Below are positions 30,001 through 39,000 of a DNA stretch of 64,000 nucleotides, piece after piece (positions within the stretch are counted from its first letter, which is position 1; every line of letters starts with the position of its first letter). Position numbers: made by a program. Source of the DNA: Bdellovibrionales bacterium (GTDB lineage Bacteria; Bdellovibrionota; Bdellovibrionia; Bdellovibrionales; UBA1609); NCBI GenBank assembly GCA_965205945.1, contig CBDBIB010000002.1, positions 96,001-160,000 on the forward strand, written 5' to 3'.

Positions 30001-33000
30001 TCATTTTCTTATATTTTAGGGCATGTGCTATTTACTATGAGTCTTGGTTTTGGTTCTGTTTTTACATTAGGTAAGTATTTGCCTAAATATGCATTATCAG
30101 GTATGGCGAGTGTGAGAGTTGTTGCTATAGATACATTAGTTTCTATTTGTATAGGTATTGTGATTTTTTCTATTATTGCTTTTTCAGGTTATAAAGGGGC
30201 TTTAAGTGAGACATTATTTAGGGCGATTCCAAATTTTATTCAAATTAAAGGCTTGTCTATATTTTTGTTGTTAGGGTTTTATATTTGTATATTGATTGCT
30301 TTTATTAATGCTTCAATTGGTTTGATTGAAAACAATAATGTATAAATTAAACGATTCCACTGGTTGGAATAGAAAAAAATCTTCATTCTTTCTTTATACA
30401 GTTACAATAATAGTTTCAACTTTAATAATATACTTAAATAAAAATGGAGTAGGAGTTTTTCTAGGTAGAAGTTTTTTAGAGCAGATAGATGATGTAGTTA
30501 TTAATTATATTCTTCCACTTTCAGCGATAGTGATTTCAGTGCTTACACTAAAATATGTTGAGAAAAGTTTTTTAAAAAATGAGTTTGATGTGGATGAAAA
30601 AATTGAAAATTTAAAAATTTATTATTTTTGGAGATTTTTTTTATATTTTATAATGCCAAGTATTTATATATTTTTTTTAGTACTCCGTGTGCTTTAAAAG
30701 TTAAATCCAAGACCTAGTTGAATAGATATAGGGTCGCCCTTAGGTATTAATGAAGTGGTAACAGTGCGATCATTGGGGGTGAGTAGTGTTATATTTTCAC
30801 CTTCATCTGGAAAATCTGCTTTGTAATATGTGGCTTGAAGTGATATAAAATTTTTGTTATTTATTAAACAAGTACTCAATACCAGCTCCAAAATCAAAGC
30901 TTCCAACAGTATCTTTTGCTAAAAGATAAGGGCTTGCTGTGCTTTGTGAGTTTCTGTTGATTTGAGAGAAGCCACCAATAAAGAATGGGTTGTATTTAGA
31001 AATACTTTTTCTAAGGTTTTGAGTGTTAATAAAATATTTACCATGAAAAGAGGTTGTTGAAAAAGTTGAGGATCCGTTAAATAATATGTTTTCTTCAGGA
31101 AAATTATAAGAAAGAGTATGAGTTCCTGTATGGTAAGAGATATGAACTGCAAATTGTAAATTCATATAATATGTGAATAAGGCTCCAAAATAAGTTCCGG
31201 TAGAGTAATTTGACCCTAGATTTCCAGTAAAAGTACGTGTGCCTAAAAGGATACCTATACTTAACATTCTACCAAATTTAAAAAAGTTAGTATCAGTTTC
31301 TTCTGTAGAAATATCTATAAAATCACTGTAATCAGCAAAAGGATCAAAAGCATCATCGGTTAGGCTATCATCGCAAAAACATAGCGCTGGAACTAGTAAA
31401 ACCACTAAAATAATTTTGGAGGCTATTATTTTCATAGATGTCTTATTATCGGACATTTATTTTTAAATGATAAGTAGGAAATAGAGCAAAACAGCTTGAA
31501 TGAAACATAATATTAGTATTTTTTAATATTTAGGATTGGCATTTGCTCTCTTTTATCATATAAAAGCCTTTACTTTTAGAGGCTTATATTCAAGAGCAAA
31601 GTTTAAACTCTTGTTAGAGAGGGGAAGCATAGGCCGCCTGCTAATAAGAAAGGACAATATGAAAACACATAGTGGTGCTCAAGAAACGTTTTCGTCTAAA
31701 GCCAGGTGGAAAAATAAAAAGAAAAAAGCGTGGGCTTCGCCATATACTTACAAATAAAACATCTAAAAGAAAAAGACATTTAGGCATGATGGATCATGTT
31801 CATATATCTGATGTTAAACAGGTAAAGCGTATGCTAGGGGTGAGGTAGTTCATGAGAGTTAAAAGAGGAGTCGTAGCACGCAAAAGAAGAAAAAAAGTTT
31901 TAGAAAGAGCAAGTGGCTATTACTCAGCAGGTAGCAGATTATTTACTGTTGCAAAAGAAAAGAAATGATAGAGCCTTAGTTTATGGTTATAGAGATAGAA
32001 AAACTAAGAAACGTGAGTTTAGAAAATTATGGAATCAAAGAATTAATGCTGGAGCTAGAATAAATGGAACAACTTATTCAGTTCTTATTGGAGCATTAAA
32101 GAAAACAGGTATCCAGCTTGATAGAAAAGTTTTATCAGATCTTGCAATTTTTGACCCTTTAGCATTTTCTGCCGTTGTTAAACAGGCCGGACTATAATTA
32201 AATTTTGCTTAAGTTTTTAAAAGAGTTAAGAGTTTTTTTTAAGGCTTAATTATGAGTAGATCAGAAGACCCAAAGCTTTTTGAGCAAAGAAAAAAAGATC
32301 ATATTAAATGGTCTTTAAATAACAAATCTCAAGTAGGACTGTCTCCTTCTAAACAAGTTAAATTAATACATGATCCGCTCCCAGAAATTAATTTTAAAGA
32401 TATAAAAATAAAGAGTTCATCTAGATTTTTAAAAACTCAAAGCCATTAATGGTGAGTTCTATGACCGGAGGCTATAAAGAAGCGTTTAAGGTTAATAAAA
32501 TTTTAATGCAGGCTTGTTTAAATAAGAATTGGGCTTTTTCTATAGGGTCATTAAGAAAAGAACTAGAGATGATACATTTAAATGAACTTAGTAAAGAGTG
32601 GGTGGTTTTAAGAAAAGACTTTTTAAAATCAATGGATTTAATTGGTAATATTGGAATAGCTCAATTGATTTCACATAAAATCAAAGATATTCAAAAACTT
32701 TGTAAACTCTATGAACTTAAGGGTCTTTATATTCATTTAAATCCTTTACAAGAAGTGATTCAGCCTGAAGGCAATACAAATTTTAAAGGTGGTTTAGGGG
32801 CATTAAAGAATTTAACAGAAAATTTAGACGTGCCAGTGTTTTTAAAAGAAACAGGCACTGGTTTTTCAAAGCAAACATTTAAAAAAATTAAAAATTTAAA
32901 TTTATCGGCAGTGGATGTTTCAGGTTTTGGTGGAACTCATTGGGGGCGTATTGAAGGCTTAAGGTCACAAGAAGAATCTATATTTTATAAAGCATCAAAA

Positions 33001-36000: not shown

Positions 36001-39000
36001 TATGGTTGTAATTGCAGATGGTGCTAGAAAAAAAATGCCTTCTTCTAAGGCTCATAAGAATGTGAAATCAAGTCTTCTTTATTCGGGTAGAGAAGAAAGA
36101 GCAAAAATTCGTATGAAGCTACTTTTAGACGCCTTAAGGTTTAATAATTGGAGGGAGGCATTTGAATTGTGTTGGAGTGAGTTCTGGGATATGCATGTTC
36201 TTTTTCAAACATCTAATCCAAGTTTTGGTTACATGAATAAAGGCTCTATGCAGATTCTTCAACATATAAAATCTAGTTGGAGAAAGGCTGGTGATGGACC
36301 TATTGTTACTATGGATGCTGGACCTAATGTACATCTTCTTTTTAGAGCAGAGCAGTTTTTTATGGCAAAAAAGATAAAAGATTACTATTTAGACTTTGGG
36401 TTTAAAGTTTATTCGGATAAGATCTAAAAAATTATGAGAGATCAGATTTTTTCAAAAATTATTTTATGTGGAGAACATTCCGTATTAAGGGGAGGAATGG
36501 CCGTTGTTACATCTTTAAAGTCTCATAGTTTTAAATATGATATTGAAACTTCAAATAAATTTATACTTTCGTATTCTAAACAGGTACGCCCTTATGAAAT
36601 CTTATTTGAAGGGGTTTTTGATAAAGCATTAAGTATTCTAGGTAGGAAAAGAAACGACTTAAAAGTAAAAATTAAAATTGAATCAATTGTTCCATTAGGT
36701 AAAGGACTTGGAGGGTCAGCAGCTGTTTCTGTATTTATTTCCAGAGTTATGAGATTTTTATCTTTTATAAAGGAAGAGCGGTTGTTTTTGTTTGCTGTGG
36801 AATTAGAAAATATGTTTCACGGAGAGAGTAGTGGTGTGGATATAGCTGGATGCTTAAGTTCTGGACCTCATTCGTATTTAAGAGGAAAGTCTATTAAAAA
36901 AATTGAAACCAATCTAAAAAATGTTATGTTTGCTTTATCAGATACAAATCAAATAGGTGAAACAGACGTTTGTATACAAAAAGTTGAAAGTTTTAAAATG
37001 AAGAATAAAAAACTTTTTTACTCTTTAGATATGAAGATGGATAAGGCTTCAAAAGATATAGTTAAGGCTTTAGAAGAGAATAATTTAGAATTGTTAACAA
37101 TGGGGATAAAATCAGCAAATAAAATTTTTAATCAATGGGGGTTAGTTACTCTTAAAATGTTTGAAAAAATAAAGGAGTTAAAAGATGCTGGTGCTTTGGC
37201 TGTTAAACCTACAGGATCTGGAATGGGTGGTTATTTATTGTCTATTTGGAAAAAAGAAGATGAAGTTAAGGCTTTAAAAACATGTTCGGAGATCTCAGTA
37301 TTTAAATTAATATAAGATATAAAAAGAAAAGAGTGCAATTAAATACTTAATTCATAAAGTGCAATAGATAAACAAGAGTTTACATTAAGAGATTCAACAT
37401 GAGAAGAAATAGGTATTGATAAAAAGTTTTTAGAAAGTTCTTTAGGAATATGTCCGCCCTCTTCGCCTAAAAGAAGACGTAGGCTTTTTCCTTTTAAATC
37501 ACAGGTTTTTATAGAAACTCCAGATTTATCTAAAGAGTAAAAATTTTCATGGGTGAGATCTTTTATACTAGGGCCTAAAAAAAGAGGAGCTTTTAAAATA
37601 CTTCCACTAGAGGCTTTTATGACATCTTGTAAAAAGGGGCTTGAGGCCTCTTTAAGAAGAATTATTTTTTTTACTGAAAAGGCTAAGCAAGTACGAATAA
37701 GCGCGCCAAGGTTTTTTGGATCACCAATTGGTAGAATAACTTCAATTCCTTTAGGTTCTTTTTTAAAGTCAAAAAGCTTGAGTTTAGGAGTTTTTAAGAG
37801 GTAAATAGGCAATTTTGAATTAAGAGTGGAAAGTTCTTGGAAAAGTTCTTTATTTAATAAATAATCAGGGTTTTCTTTTTTTAAAAAATGTATACTTTTA
37901 AAATTTGTGCCTGACTGTTTAACTTCATGAATGACATATTGGCCTGCTGCTAAAAAAAGCTTCTCTTTTTTAATACCTTTTGATGTCTTTAAAGATTTTA
38001 GTATTTTAAAGGTCGGATTTTGAGCACTATTAATGATTTTCATGGATTTTACCGCCTTAAGTATTATAAGATTAAGTTGCCATAAAATCAAAAATAATCC
38101 AATATTTTAAGTATGTTACCAGGAAAAATTAATCAGTTGGTTGAAGATAACTATTTTAAGGCTCTAACCCAGATCAATCAGGCTATGGACTCTAGTTCGT
38201 TGTATGAAGTTAAAGTAAAGTATTTTGGGAAACAAGGAAAGTTTACTTCTATTTTAAAGGGCTTAAGTAAACTGTCTAAAGAGGAGCGTCCAGAGGCTGG
38301 AAGAATTGTAAATATTAAAAAACAAGAGCTTTTAAAAGCTTATGAGGCTAGGCAAGAAGAACTGGATAAAGCTGAGTTAGATTTAGTTATCTTAAAAGAA
38401 ACATTTAATTTTTCAATTCCTAGAAAAAGAGAATCTTTAGGGAGTCAACACCCAATTACAAAGATTACTGATGAAATGGTAAGTATACTTTTAAAAATTG
38501 GTTTTTCTGTAAGAACAGGTCCTCATATTGAAAGCGATGAGAATAATTTTTCAAAATTAAACTTCCCCAAAGATCATCCTGCTCGTGATATGCAAGACAC
38601 TTTTTATATTGATTCTAATTATGTTTTAAGAACTCATACATCGCCAATTCAGATTAGAACATTAGAGAGTGAACCCTTACCTTTACGAATATTGGCTCCA
38701 GGTTCAGTTTTTAGATGTGATTCAGATATTAGTCATTCACCAAATTTTAATCAAATTGAAGGCCTTTATGTAGATAAGAATGTTTCAATGTCTCATTTAA
38801 AGGGAATTATAGGATATTTTGTAAGAGAGCTTTTTGGGAAAAAAACAAGAATAAGGTTTAGGCCAAGTTTTTTTCCATTTACAGAGCCTTCTGCAGAAGT
38901 AGATTGCACTTGTCTTCTTTGTAGTGAAAAAGGCTGTAGGGTTTGTTCTAATACTGGATGGATTGAAATTGGTGGGTGTGGGCTTATTCATCCTAATGTT

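Follow-up and report, generated by a model that had tools for sequence, protein, structure and literature searches.

A mevalonate operon without a recognisable HMG-CoA synthase gene in a Bdellovibrionales genome, and leucine breakdown as a probable source of HMG-CoA

Described systems related to the locus

The classical mevalonate pathway of bacteria, as found in Gram-positive cocci, comprises a thiolase, HMG-CoA synthase (HMGS), class II HMG-CoA reductase (HMGR), mevalonate kinase (MK), phosphomevalonate kinase (PMK), diphosphomevalonate decarboxylase (MDD) and type 2 isopentenyl diphosphate isomerase (IDI-2). We analyzed a window of 64,000 nucleotides from the genome of a small, predatory-type member of the Bdellovibrionales which resembles this arrangement. 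A class II HMGR, a GHMP-type MK, MDD and IDI-2 are located together in one operon, and a third kinase of predicted GHMP fold occupies the PMK position. In contrast to the classical pathway an HMGS gene is absent, and the kinase at the PMK position is short (270 aa) and recognised by neither Pfam nor NCBIfam.

In Pseudomonas mevalonii the mvaAB genes serve the catabolism of mevalonate. The closest solved structure to the HMGR of the window is 1qax (3.4e-81), the P. mevalonii enzyme, and the genome analyzed here has an HMG-CoA lyase gene as well. However, the HMGR of the window is grouped with MK, MDD and IDI-2 and lies away from the lyase. Therefore the biosynthetic direction is favoured.

A connection between leucine and isoprenoids has been described in trypanosomatids. 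According to the passages used from that work, leucine is converted via isovaleryl-CoA dehydrogenase (IVD), methylcrotonyl-CoA carboxylase (MCC) and MGH to HMG-CoA, which enters sterol synthesis through HMGR, and deletion of IVD in trypanosomes abolished the incorporation of leucine into sterols (PMC5993337). The same course from leucine over HMG-CoA to HMGR is proposed here. The passages also describe that trypanosomes keep HMGS and a thiolase bridge, with leucine as one of several sources (PMC5993337). Here HMGS is not encoded and therefore leucine would be the only source, unlike in trypanosomes. For Myxococcus xanthus, which belongs to a related predatory group, the passages used on LiuC/MvaS describe a crotonase at the branch of isoprenoid and isovaleryl-CoA metabolism that interconverts HMG-CoA and 3-methylglutaconyl-CoA; in contrast to our genome, MvaS (HMGS) is present there and the branch can run in reverse, yielding isovaleryl-CoA (PMC5389471).

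Composition of the mevalonate operon

Five closely spaced genes with the same direction were found from 32253 to 37315 (Table 1). The order of a five-gene mevalonate operon, as claimed in an earlier note on this DNA, was recovered.

Table 1. Features of the mevalonate operon and its upstream region (positions within the window)
Feature	Position	Strand	Basis
Upstream gene, putative ribosomal protein L20 (rplT)	31913..32197	+	ORF identified by eye
IDI-2, N-terminal piece, ~64 codons, other frame than remainder	32253..32447	+	translation aligns with intact relatives
A5 homopolymer, site of IDI-2 frame shift	32431..32435	+	DNA and proteins of relatives
IDI-2, C-terminal part, 287 codons (g00664)	32449..33312	+	TIGR02151, PF01070 FMN_dh
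Class II HMG-CoA reductase (HMGR)	33302..34609	+	PF00368 1e-81; TIGR00532
Unannotated kinase of predicted GHMP fold, candidate phosphomevalonate kinase	34637..35449	+	predicted fold, family profile
Diphosphomevalonate decarboxylase (MDD)	35453..36427	+	PF22700 2.9e-34; PF18376; TIGR01240
Mevalonate kinase (MK)	36434..37315	+	PF00288 2.4e-11; TIGR00549

The HMGR reached 299.7 bits with TIGR00532 and exceeded the cut-off of 259.95. For MK and MDD the expected families ranked first and the Pfam domains passed, but the NCBIfam cut-offs were missed. MK scored 128.1 bits with TIGR00549 (cut-off 163.05), yet this was the top-scoring family, and MDD scored 153.5 bits with TIGR01240 (cut-off 171.35) compared to 56 bits with the phosphomevalonate decarboxylase model. 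IDI-2 likewise remained below its cut-off (TIGR02151, 244.8 versus 281.3 bits), the match covering profile positions 58-336 of 338.

The reading frame of IDI-2 is not intact in this assembly, since a one-base frameshift splits the gene. Its N-terminal translation aligns with the intact IDI-2 of genome G017 and of G078, a member of the same genus, and the protein sequence of the relatives implies one extra base in the A5 homopolymer. In G078 and in G082, also of the same genus, IDI-2 is intact. Contigs of two public read runs cover parts of the stretch; a gap from 32094 to 32469 spans the frameshift. The start at 32449 given in the earlier note has to be corrected on the basis of the translation, the DNA and the alignment of relatives: the gene starts at 32253 and 32449 therefore opens only the second piece.

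According to the gene table of Bdellovibrio bacteriovorus the L20 gene is located immediately upstream of IDI-2 in this species too, and in G017 an L20 gene confirmed by Pfam lies upstream of an HMGR. The putative L20 gene of the window and the mevalonate operon may be co-transcribed. A promoter and terminator scan was uninformative, with fewer promoter-like sites than in shuffled sequences and no terminator on the + strand. No additional conserved gene accompanies the operon when the window, G017 and G152 are compared.

The ORF between HMGR and MDD showed no match in Pfam or NCBIfam at E<=0.1, including GHMP_kinases_N and GHMP_kinases_C. Its translation contains the motif GGFGSSTAE. In total, 169 homologs were found, and G71, G73 and S75 were unchanged across 28 homologs. 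The family profile matched mevalonate kinases (1.8e-8), 3k17 over the N-terminal 40 residues (6e-6) and the PMK 1k47 (0.05). An AF2 model (pLDDT 93.5) predicts a GHMP fold; in Foldseek, structures of MK, galactokinase and PMK were related to it with a probability of 1.00 (TMq 0.70-0.76), the top value of 0.76 belonging to the PMK 1k47/3gon. The animal-type PMK family PF04275 had 0 matches in the genome, and the remaining GHMP genes are MK, MDD and one heptose-phosphate-kinase-like gene. The latter was considered as PMK and rejected, being closest to heptose-phosphate kinases. Thus, of the earlier assignment of g00666 as PMK the motif stands and the GHMP fold is borne out by the model, and the enzyme itself is a candidate PMK by fold, N-terminal motif match and elimination.

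HMG-CoA synthase and leucine degradation in the genome and its relatives

In the genome (completeness 97.3%) neither PF01154 nor PF08540 had a match at E<=10, with positive controls matching, and the HMGS model TIGR01835 found only FabH (34 bits, cut-off 360). This is in agreement with the absence of HMGS proposed before. The accompanying statement that MEP-pathway genes are missing holds for the two that were searched, LytB and GcpE, with 0 matches each. The thiolase-fold genes consist of three thiolases, FabH and FabF and no others, all with ordinary assignments and contexts. An acetoacetyl-CoA thiolase of 391 aa (TIGR01930, 438 bits, cut-off 240.55) adjoins ScoAB, another thiolase adjoins FadJ, and one of 427 aa is free-standing. 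Exactly one HMGR is present, within the complete lower-pathway operon, and on the genes searched this operon is the sole route to IPP and DMAPP found in the genome.

The leucine cluster reported in the earlier note was found again at C3:637574-642661 by family and structure matches of its genes. Their order is HMG-CoA lyase (HMGL), BCCP, biotin carboxylase, crotonase and carboxyltransferase. The carboxyltransferase matched solved MCC-beta chains with 1.7e-208 to 3.4e-208, compared to 1e-140 for geranyl-CoA carboxylase and 1e-80 or weaker for PCC-beta. HMG-CoA lyase exceeded the cut-off of NF004283 (382.1 versus 246 bits) and is the single HMGL-like gene of the genome. The crotonase is located between the MCC subunit genes, and the solved structure closest to it is that of an unnamed crotonase; its position suggests a 3-methylglutaconyl-CoA hydratase, a function which sequence cannot separate from other crotonases.

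E1, E2 and IVD were named via PDB matches, as NCBIfam at 1e-90 was too strict. The five best solved matches of isovaleryl-CoA dehydrogenase were all IVD (5e-90 to 1e-76). A single E1 alpha/beta pair was present, with E1 alpha nearest to BCKDH-type structures (1.8e-23 versus 4e-15 for PDH), and E2 and E3 lie apart from it, adjoining lipA. Together these genes are candidates for a BCKDH-like complex acting on branched-chain 2-oxoacids. A Leu/Phe/Val-type dehydrogenase gene is present as well. Judged by sequence similarity, the full leucine-to-HMG-CoA gene set is encoded, consisting of the dehydrogenase, the BCKDH-like complex, IVD, MCC, a putative hydratase and HMG-CoA lyase.

To place these findings, HMGS and HMGR were searched in 151 genomes of the order, HMGS in 151 genomes of the phylum and MCC-beta in 81 genomes of the order. 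HMGR was found in 148 of the 151 order genomes. HMGS was found in four to five of them (four over the cut-off), three of which belong to one family, f5, where 3 of 4 genomes were positive (E 1e-31 to 1e-36, ORFs of 420-433 aa). Among the phylum genomes a single one of 151 carried HMGS. The order-wide lack of HMGS claimed earlier thus applies to nearly all of the 151 genomes and fails for f5; that the pattern is not special to this genome was confirmed, as it is lineage-wide and phylum-deep with exceptions such as f5.

Of the 81 order genomes, 80 carried a close MCC-beta ortholog, and so did all 73 of good quality, genomes of 1.5-1.8 Mb among them. Family f5 carries both MCC and HMGS, and therefore MCC retention by itself is no proof. 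Across the phylum, every sampled non-MEP family but f15 and f16 had close MCC-beta orthologs at E<=1e-130, and outside f22 and f23 few MEP families had them, a comparison of little weight because this threshold misses divergent carboxyltransferases, as G152 shows. For the long HMGR ORFs (804-890 aa) a fusion with a thiolase was weighed and rejected; in G003 the extra half had no Pfam match.

Possible sources of HMG-CoA

The proposal of leucine-derived HMG-CoA was supported, as each genomic premise that was re-tested held. No HMGS gene is present, and HMG-CoA therefore most likely comes from leucine breakdown. We regard a leucine-fed entry into the mevalonate pathway as the best explanation and as rather probable. 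Leucine would be converted to 2-oxoisocaproate by the Leu-type dehydrogenase and to isovaleryl-CoA by the BCKDH-like complex, followed by 3-methylcrotonyl-CoA (IVD), 3-methylglutaconyl-CoA (MCC) and HMG-CoA (cluster crotonase). At HMG-CoA the route would branch, with a small share passing to HMGR for isoprenoids and the remainder being burnt by HMG-CoA lyase, ScoAB and thiolase. From HMG-CoA onward the operon would work through HMGR, MK, the orphan kinase as PMK, MDD and IDI-2. Gene content, gene order and conservation are observed here; we infer that flow runs this way, that the orphan kinase and the crotonase act as PMK and hydratase, and that the actual carbon source is leucine, which probably stems from prey protein. 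Chances are about even that HMGS was lost in the mevalonate-using lineages of the phylum and that leucine catabolism (IVD, MCC, hydratase) is now the obligatory upper half of the pathway.

Published Tn-seq data of B. bacteriovorus bear on this, as far as the table rows and passages used here are concerned (PMC6561027). IDI-2, HMGR and MDD had zero insertions, HMGR so in axenic culture, and the MCC biotin carboxylase had a mean of 0.17 sites. IVD and the cluster enoyl-CoA hydratase were listed as 'ND' (no fitness value), as were the two mevalonate operon genes annotated as hypothetical; in an arbitrary section of the table 'ND' occurred in 5 of 52 rows. HMG-CoA lyase tolerated insertions with a fitness W of 0.40-0.54. 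These rows fit the view that the steps to HMG-CoA resemble essential mevalonate genes, with the exception of MCC-beta, and that the lyase is dispensable. Against a leucine entry, MCC-beta had noisy fitness values of 0.69-1.43 (SD 0.2-1.3) and BCCP values of 2.5-3.9, so some insertions were recovered there, and leucine dehydrogenase was dispensable; these rows and passages define neither polar effects nor what 'ND' stands for (PMC6561027). Further points against it are that HMG-CoA lyase competes for HMG-CoA, that G134 (1.2 Mb, 95% complete) has only a 35% MCC-beta paralog and lacks HMG-CoA lyase, though it does carry HMGR and an IVD ortholog, and that in G152, from another family of the phylum, the carboxyltransferase adjoining lyase and hydratase is PCC-like and not MCC-like.

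Alternatively, acetyl-CoA and acetoacetyl-CoA might be condensed by an unrecognised enzyme, either a thiolase among the three encoded or a protein whose fold lies outside the HMGS models, with leucine catabolism serving ordinary energy metabolism. The free-standing thiolase would be available, the searches were limited to what family models cover, a clear MCC-beta is not evident in G134 and G152, and the B. bacteriovorus MCC-beta tolerates some transposon insertions in the rows used. We nevertheless think this unlikely: neither HMGS domain matched even at the most permissive threshold, the contexts of all thiolase-fold genes are ordinary, the operon has no extra conserved companion, and IVD, hydratase and MCC biotin carboxylase are insertion-poor in the same rows. 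Hardly any credence is given to a reversed HMG-CoA lyase forming HMG-CoA from acetoacetate and acetyl-CoA. The lyase, ScoAB and the acetoacetyl-CoA thiolase are all encoded, and lyase mutants were less fit in the Tn-seq rows. However, cleavage is strongly favoured in the lyase reaction, and insertions were tolerated in the lyase and absent from HMGR in these rows; the lyase therefore cannot be the only source of HMG-CoA.

Mevalonate or later intermediates could also be obtained from prey or medium, with HMGR being degradative or a relic. Typical Gram-negative prey use the MEP pathway and are not known to contain mevalonate, which speaks against this. The published relatives are predatory, and the TIGR00532 model passed by the HMGR carries 'degradative' in its NCBIfam name. 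Use of prey acetoacetyl-CoA has been proposed (Pasternak 2013, as cited in the passage used of PMC4451040). We consider such a supply very unlikely, since HMGR is retained almost throughout the order genomes and lies within a biosynthetic operon, and the lack of HMGR insertions in axenic culture, as given in the Tn-seq rows used, would be unexpected were mevalonate supplied.

If leucine catabolism is indeed the obligatory upper half of the pathway, the cell would be bound to leucine from prey protein for making its quinones and the lipid carrier of its wall, and enzymes usually seen as catabolic would have an essential role in biosynthesis. With leucine as the sole entry, bacterial isoprenoid supply would hang on amino-acid catabolism and not on acetyl-CoA condensation. 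This would explain why predators of the group keep a mevalonate pathway without its committed enzyme, with growth tied to prey protein, and it suggests that IVD, MCC and the hydratase are essential in bacteria proposed as living antibiotics. In the literature searched, subscription papers being outside it, neither the HMGS gap nor a leucine route was found to be published for this group; the genome paper on one relative entered HMGS with a question mark. In the annotation of B. bacteriovorus both MK and the orphan kinase are 'hypothetical protein', and these two operon genes would now gain names, one of them as a GHMP kinase family missed by current libraries.

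The five-gene mevalonate operon

An earlier note on this DNA had described a mevalonate operon of five genes, and this was upheld by family matches across 32253-37315. Neighbouring genes lie 3 to 27 bases apart or overlap by 11 bases. HMG-CoA reductase (HMGR) alone scored above its curated NCBIfam cut-off; its nearest solved structure was 1qax (3.4e-81). Since the NCBIfam scores of the type 2 IPP isomerase (IDI-2), diphosphomevalonate decarboxylase (MDD) and mevalonate kinase (MK) were all below the curated cut-offs, we regard these as divergent members. The decarboxylase preferred the diphosphomevalonate model (153.5 bits) to the phosphomevalonate decarboxylase model (56 bits). 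Therefore the classical step order, and hence a phosphomevalonate kinase (PMK), is expected.

Location of the features in the window, in its genome and in relatives
Feature	Location	Strand	Family match or remark
Symporter-family gene, first ORF	29347-30345		332 aa; Pfam match, profile positions 3-113 of 524
Symporter-family gene, second ORF	30326-30697		123 aa
Upstream gene	31913-32197		Ribosomal protein L20, judged by eye
Mevalonate operon	32253-37315	+	Five genes
IDI-2	32253-33312	+	TIGR02151, 244.8 bits
Class II HMGR		+	PF00368 1e-81; TIGR00532 299.7 bits, cut-off 259.95 (passed)
Orphan kinase, 270 aa	34637-35449	+	Pfam/NCBIfam: nothing at E<=0.1
MDD		+	PF22700 2.9e-34; TIGR01240 153.5 bits
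MK		+	PF00288 2.4e-11; TIGR00549 128.1 bits
Own genome, fourth GHMP kinase	C1:111363-112364		333 aa
Own genome, lipA-E2-E3 group	C3:339548-343215
Own genome, E1 alpha/beta pair	C3:387057-389172
Relative G017, second HMGR and HMGS	L020:6781-8163 and L019:6935-8206
Relative G003, long HMGR ORF	L022:6033-8447		804 aa
Relative G152, mevalonate operon	L039:278-7177
Relative G152, lyase cluster	L037:1247-4525

The start of IDI-2 had previously been placed at 32449, which is wrong: the N-terminus is encoded from the ATG at 32253 in another frame. Read from 32449, the TIGR02151 match covers profile positions 58-336 of 338 only, and the N-terminal piece aligned with the intact IDI-2 of two relatives, G017 and G078, the latter of the same genus (362-aa ORF). 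Both frames join at a run of five A (32431-32435), where the protein sequence of the relatives implies one extra base. In G078 and G082, of the same genus, the frame is uninterrupted. Two public read runs that include parts of the stretch leave 32094-32469 uncovered. We consider an assembly error more likely than a real mutation, because the isomerase is required in an organism that has only the mevalonate pathway, and because the IDI-2 of B. bacteriovorus has no transposon insertions in the data treated below.

Approximately 2 kb upstream, a gene of the sodium:neurotransmitter-symporter family is split into two overlapping ORFs, with a Pfam match in the first only. This may be a second frameshift near that of IDI-2; it fits indel errors and is no proof of them.

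The orphan GHMP kinase

The ORF between HMGR and MDD, here referred to as the orphan kinase, had 169 homologs at E<=0.001, and none of these carried a precomputed Pfam domain. They include 'hypothetical proteins' of Bdellovibrio as well as Legionella proteins labelled mevalonate kinase by UniRef; the closest named relative belongs to a 'Bdellovibrionales bacterium' MAG. In 28 aligned members G71, G73, S75 and a C-terminal GCGAxG were invariant. The family profile matched solved mevalonate kinases at 1.8e-8 to 3.8e-8, the S. pneumoniae PMK at 0.05 and 3k17, which we take to be the Listeria PMK ortholog, at 6e-6 over the N-terminal 40 residues. A GHMP fold is shown by the predicted structure: the AlphaFold model was confident (pLDDT 93.5) and Foldseek retrieved GHMP kinases with probability 1.00. 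The highest TMq (0.76) was to the PMK 1k47/3gon, in a comparison that does not separate MK, galactokinase and PMK.

The animal-type PMK family was absent from the genome in a family search. Besides MK and MDD, the other GHMP_kinases_N genes comprised one heptose-phosphate-kinase-like gene only. This fourth GHMP kinase, on contig C1, was rejected as a PMK candidate, being nearest to heptose-phosphate kinases; it adjoins ABC-transporter accessory genes. The orphan-kinase family was also located between HMGR and MDD in G017 (33% identity) and in G152 (hhalign probability 98.8%), and the B. bacteriovorus rows consulted list a 'hypothetical protein' at this position. Based on position and elimination, a candidate PMK is the best reading of the orphan kinase.

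Distribution of HMG-CoA synthase and MEP genes

The genome (1.87 Mb, 5 contigs, 97.3% complete) had been described as lacking HMG-CoA synthase (HMGS), and our searches agreed: PF01154 and PF08540 gave zero matches at E<=10, and TIGR01835 (HMGS) retrieved FabH only, with 34 bits versus a cut-off of 360. The thiolase-fold genes were three thiolases, FabH and FabF; one thiolase adjoins the CoA transferase pair ScoAB and another FadJ. An absence of MEP genes had been claimed as well, and it held for those searched, LytB and GcpE (0 matches at E<=1). The sole transketolase-like ORF (664 aa) matched Transketolase_N, a domain of transketolases that differs from the N-terminal one of DXS.

HMGR was found in 148 of 151 genomes of the order, and in 124/125 of those of good quality. 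HMGS_N was present in five of the 151 at E<=0.001 and in four over the cut-off. Clear HMGS genes (E 1e-31 to 1e-36, ORFs of 420-433 aa) occurred in one family alone, f5 (3/4 genomes), and the other two matches were weak (28.1 and 22.7 bits). The earlier statement that all relatives lack HMGS is thus correct for most of the order and incorrect for f5. In the f5 genome G017, HMGS is a stand-alone gene, with chemotaxis and Fe-S genes as neighbours, and carries both Pfam domains. All three f5 genomes with HMGS additionally have a second HMGR. Within the phylum sample, HMGS was found at E<=1e-10 in 1/151 genomes and LytB in 54/151; none of these 54 is among the sample's 23 genomes from the order of the window genome. 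The missing-HMGS trait is lineage-wide and much older than the window genome.

Further variation was seen around HMGR. The second copy in G017 lies outside the five-gene operon, between rplT, which it directly follows, and a FAD oxidoreductase. In G003, HMGR occupies the first 409 residues of a long ORF whose C-terminal half had no match; the genes after it encode a PPDK-like protein and an AMP-binding enzyme. G092 and G096 likewise have long HMGR ORFs (821-890 aa).

Leucine catabolism as putative source of HMG-CoA

The known enzymatic sources of HMG-CoA are HMGS and methylglutaconyl-CoA hydratase and, in principle, HMG-CoA lyase or HMGR in reverse. Given that HMGS is missing and that HMGR is both essential and conserved, entry through the hydratase is the simplest interpretation, and we consider it probable. 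Leucine catabolism would yield methylglutaconyl-CoA, which the hydratase would convert to HMG-CoA, feeding HMGR.

On contig 3 the genes for HMG-CoA lyase, biotin carrier, biotin carboxylase, crotonase and carboxyltransferase are located on one strand. Besides this lyase (NF004283, 382 bits, passing the cut-off of 246), the genome has no HMGL-like gene. Compared with solved chains, the carboxyltransferase matched the beta chain of methylcrotonyl-CoA carboxylase (MCC) best, at ~1e-208; geranyl-CoA carboxylase (1e-140) and PCC-beta (1e-80 or weaker) came after it. Isovaleryl-CoA dehydrogenase (IVD) lies 27 kb from this cluster, and its top five solved matches were all IVD. Besides 2-oxoglutarate dehydrogenase, a search for the E1_dh family showed one E1 alpha/beta pair in the genome, whose nearest matches are BCKDH-type enzymes; a lipA-E2-E3 group lies 45 kb away from it. 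A class IV aminotransferase was not found in the genome; a Leu/Phe/Val-type dehydrogenase was present. ScoA, ScoB and an acetoacetyl-CoA thiolase are clustered and would complete the catabolic branch. For the crotonase, sequence comparison does not single out the hydratase assignment. For every step between leucine and HMG-CoA there is a candidate gene; the assignments of the hydratase and of the specificity of the 2-oxoacid dehydrogenase are weak.

Close orthologs of MCC-beta (58-68% identity, E<=1e-120) were found in 80 of 81 genomes of the order and in 73/73 of good quality, the miss being a 77% complete genome; genomes of 1.5-1.8 Mb keep the gene. Counting against the leucine idea, searches with the proteins of the window genome recovered only a 35% MCC-beta paralog and no lyase in G134, of the same family (1.2 Mb, 95% complete, 50 contigs). 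G134 nevertheless has a 64% IVD ortholog and an HMGR broken into two fragments, which lie at the ends of contigs; its assembly may have a gap. Since f5 has HMGS yet keeps MCC, retention alone shows no biosynthetic role. Across the phylum the ortholog was present in 61/111 genomes at E<=1e-130. In family f15, LytB and HMGS were each found in 0/20 genomes and the MCC-beta ortholog in 0/15. In the f15 member G152, the mevalonate operon starts with a polyprenyl synthase, after which come IDI-2, HMGR, orphan kinase, MDD, a 187-aa ORF and MK. Apart from it, lyase and crotonase are clustered with a carboxyltransferase that is PCC-like by sequence, and the 20 kb covered there contain no biotin carboxylase. 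The overall arrangement recurs in f15 with a PCC-like carboxylase.

Outside support for leucine entry, which the earlier note had proposed and which is the best available interpretation, came from a 90,000-insertion library of host-independent B. bacteriovorus in peptone-yeast extract (Duncan et al. 2019, PMC6561027), of which we used rows of Data Sets S2 and S3. In these rows the order L20, IDI-2, HMGR, hypothetical, MDD, hypothetical matches the window genome, as does the order lyase, BCCP, biotin carboxylase, enoyl-CoA hydratase, methylcrotonoyl-CoA carboxylase. Of the 3,607 CDS rows only two, those of the reductase and the lyase, contain 'hydroxymethylglutaryl', and no HMGS is annotated there. 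IDI-2, HMGR and MDD had zero insertions, and the MCC biotin carboxylase (mean 0.17 sites) was among the genes with under one. The fitness table enters 'ND' for IVD, the hydratase and both hypothetical operon genes, and likewise for SecY, RNA polymerase alpha and ribosomal proteins; 'ND' stood in 5/52 rows of an arbitrary part. HMG-CoA lyase had a well measured fitness of 0.40-0.54, and values were ordinary for leucine dehydrogenase and for three acyl-CoA dehydrogenases other than IVD. Overall, the genes acting before HMG-CoA resemble the essential mevalonate genes, unlike the competing lyase, and leucine entry predicts this pattern. This evidence is indirect and mixed: MCC-beta (0.69-1.43, SD up to 1.3) and BCCP (2.5-3.9, SD 2.2-3.1) have fitness values, therefore insertions were recovered there, which counts against the leucine idea. 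Values for ribosomal protein L17 were comparably noisy, and polar effects are possible.

The same data bear on other sources. HMG-CoA lyase in reverse as the sole source is highly improbable, as lyase mutants live. Uptake of mevalonate is at odds with an HMGR that is essential in axenic culture, and we consider it very unlikely. Production of HMG-CoA by an unrecognised synthase is somewhat less remote, though still unlikely.

According to PMC4646340, PMC4451040, PMC5941755 and bioRxiv 10.1101/506055, the mevalonate pathway of predatory bacteria is well known, and access to prey acetoacetyl-CoA is the explanation cited (PMC4451040). The trait described here is a lineage-wide variant of this known pathway and not peculiar to the window. 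Among papers accessible without subscription, our search found neither a missing HMGS nor a leucine-only entry stated for this group; a Spirobacillus genome paper enters HMGS with a question mark. Feeding of HMG-CoA by leucine is proven in trypanosomes, which keep HMGS unlike the window genome (PMC5993337), and the HMG-CoA/methylglutaconyl-CoA branch has been studied in Myxococcus, which likewise has HMGS (PMC5389471).
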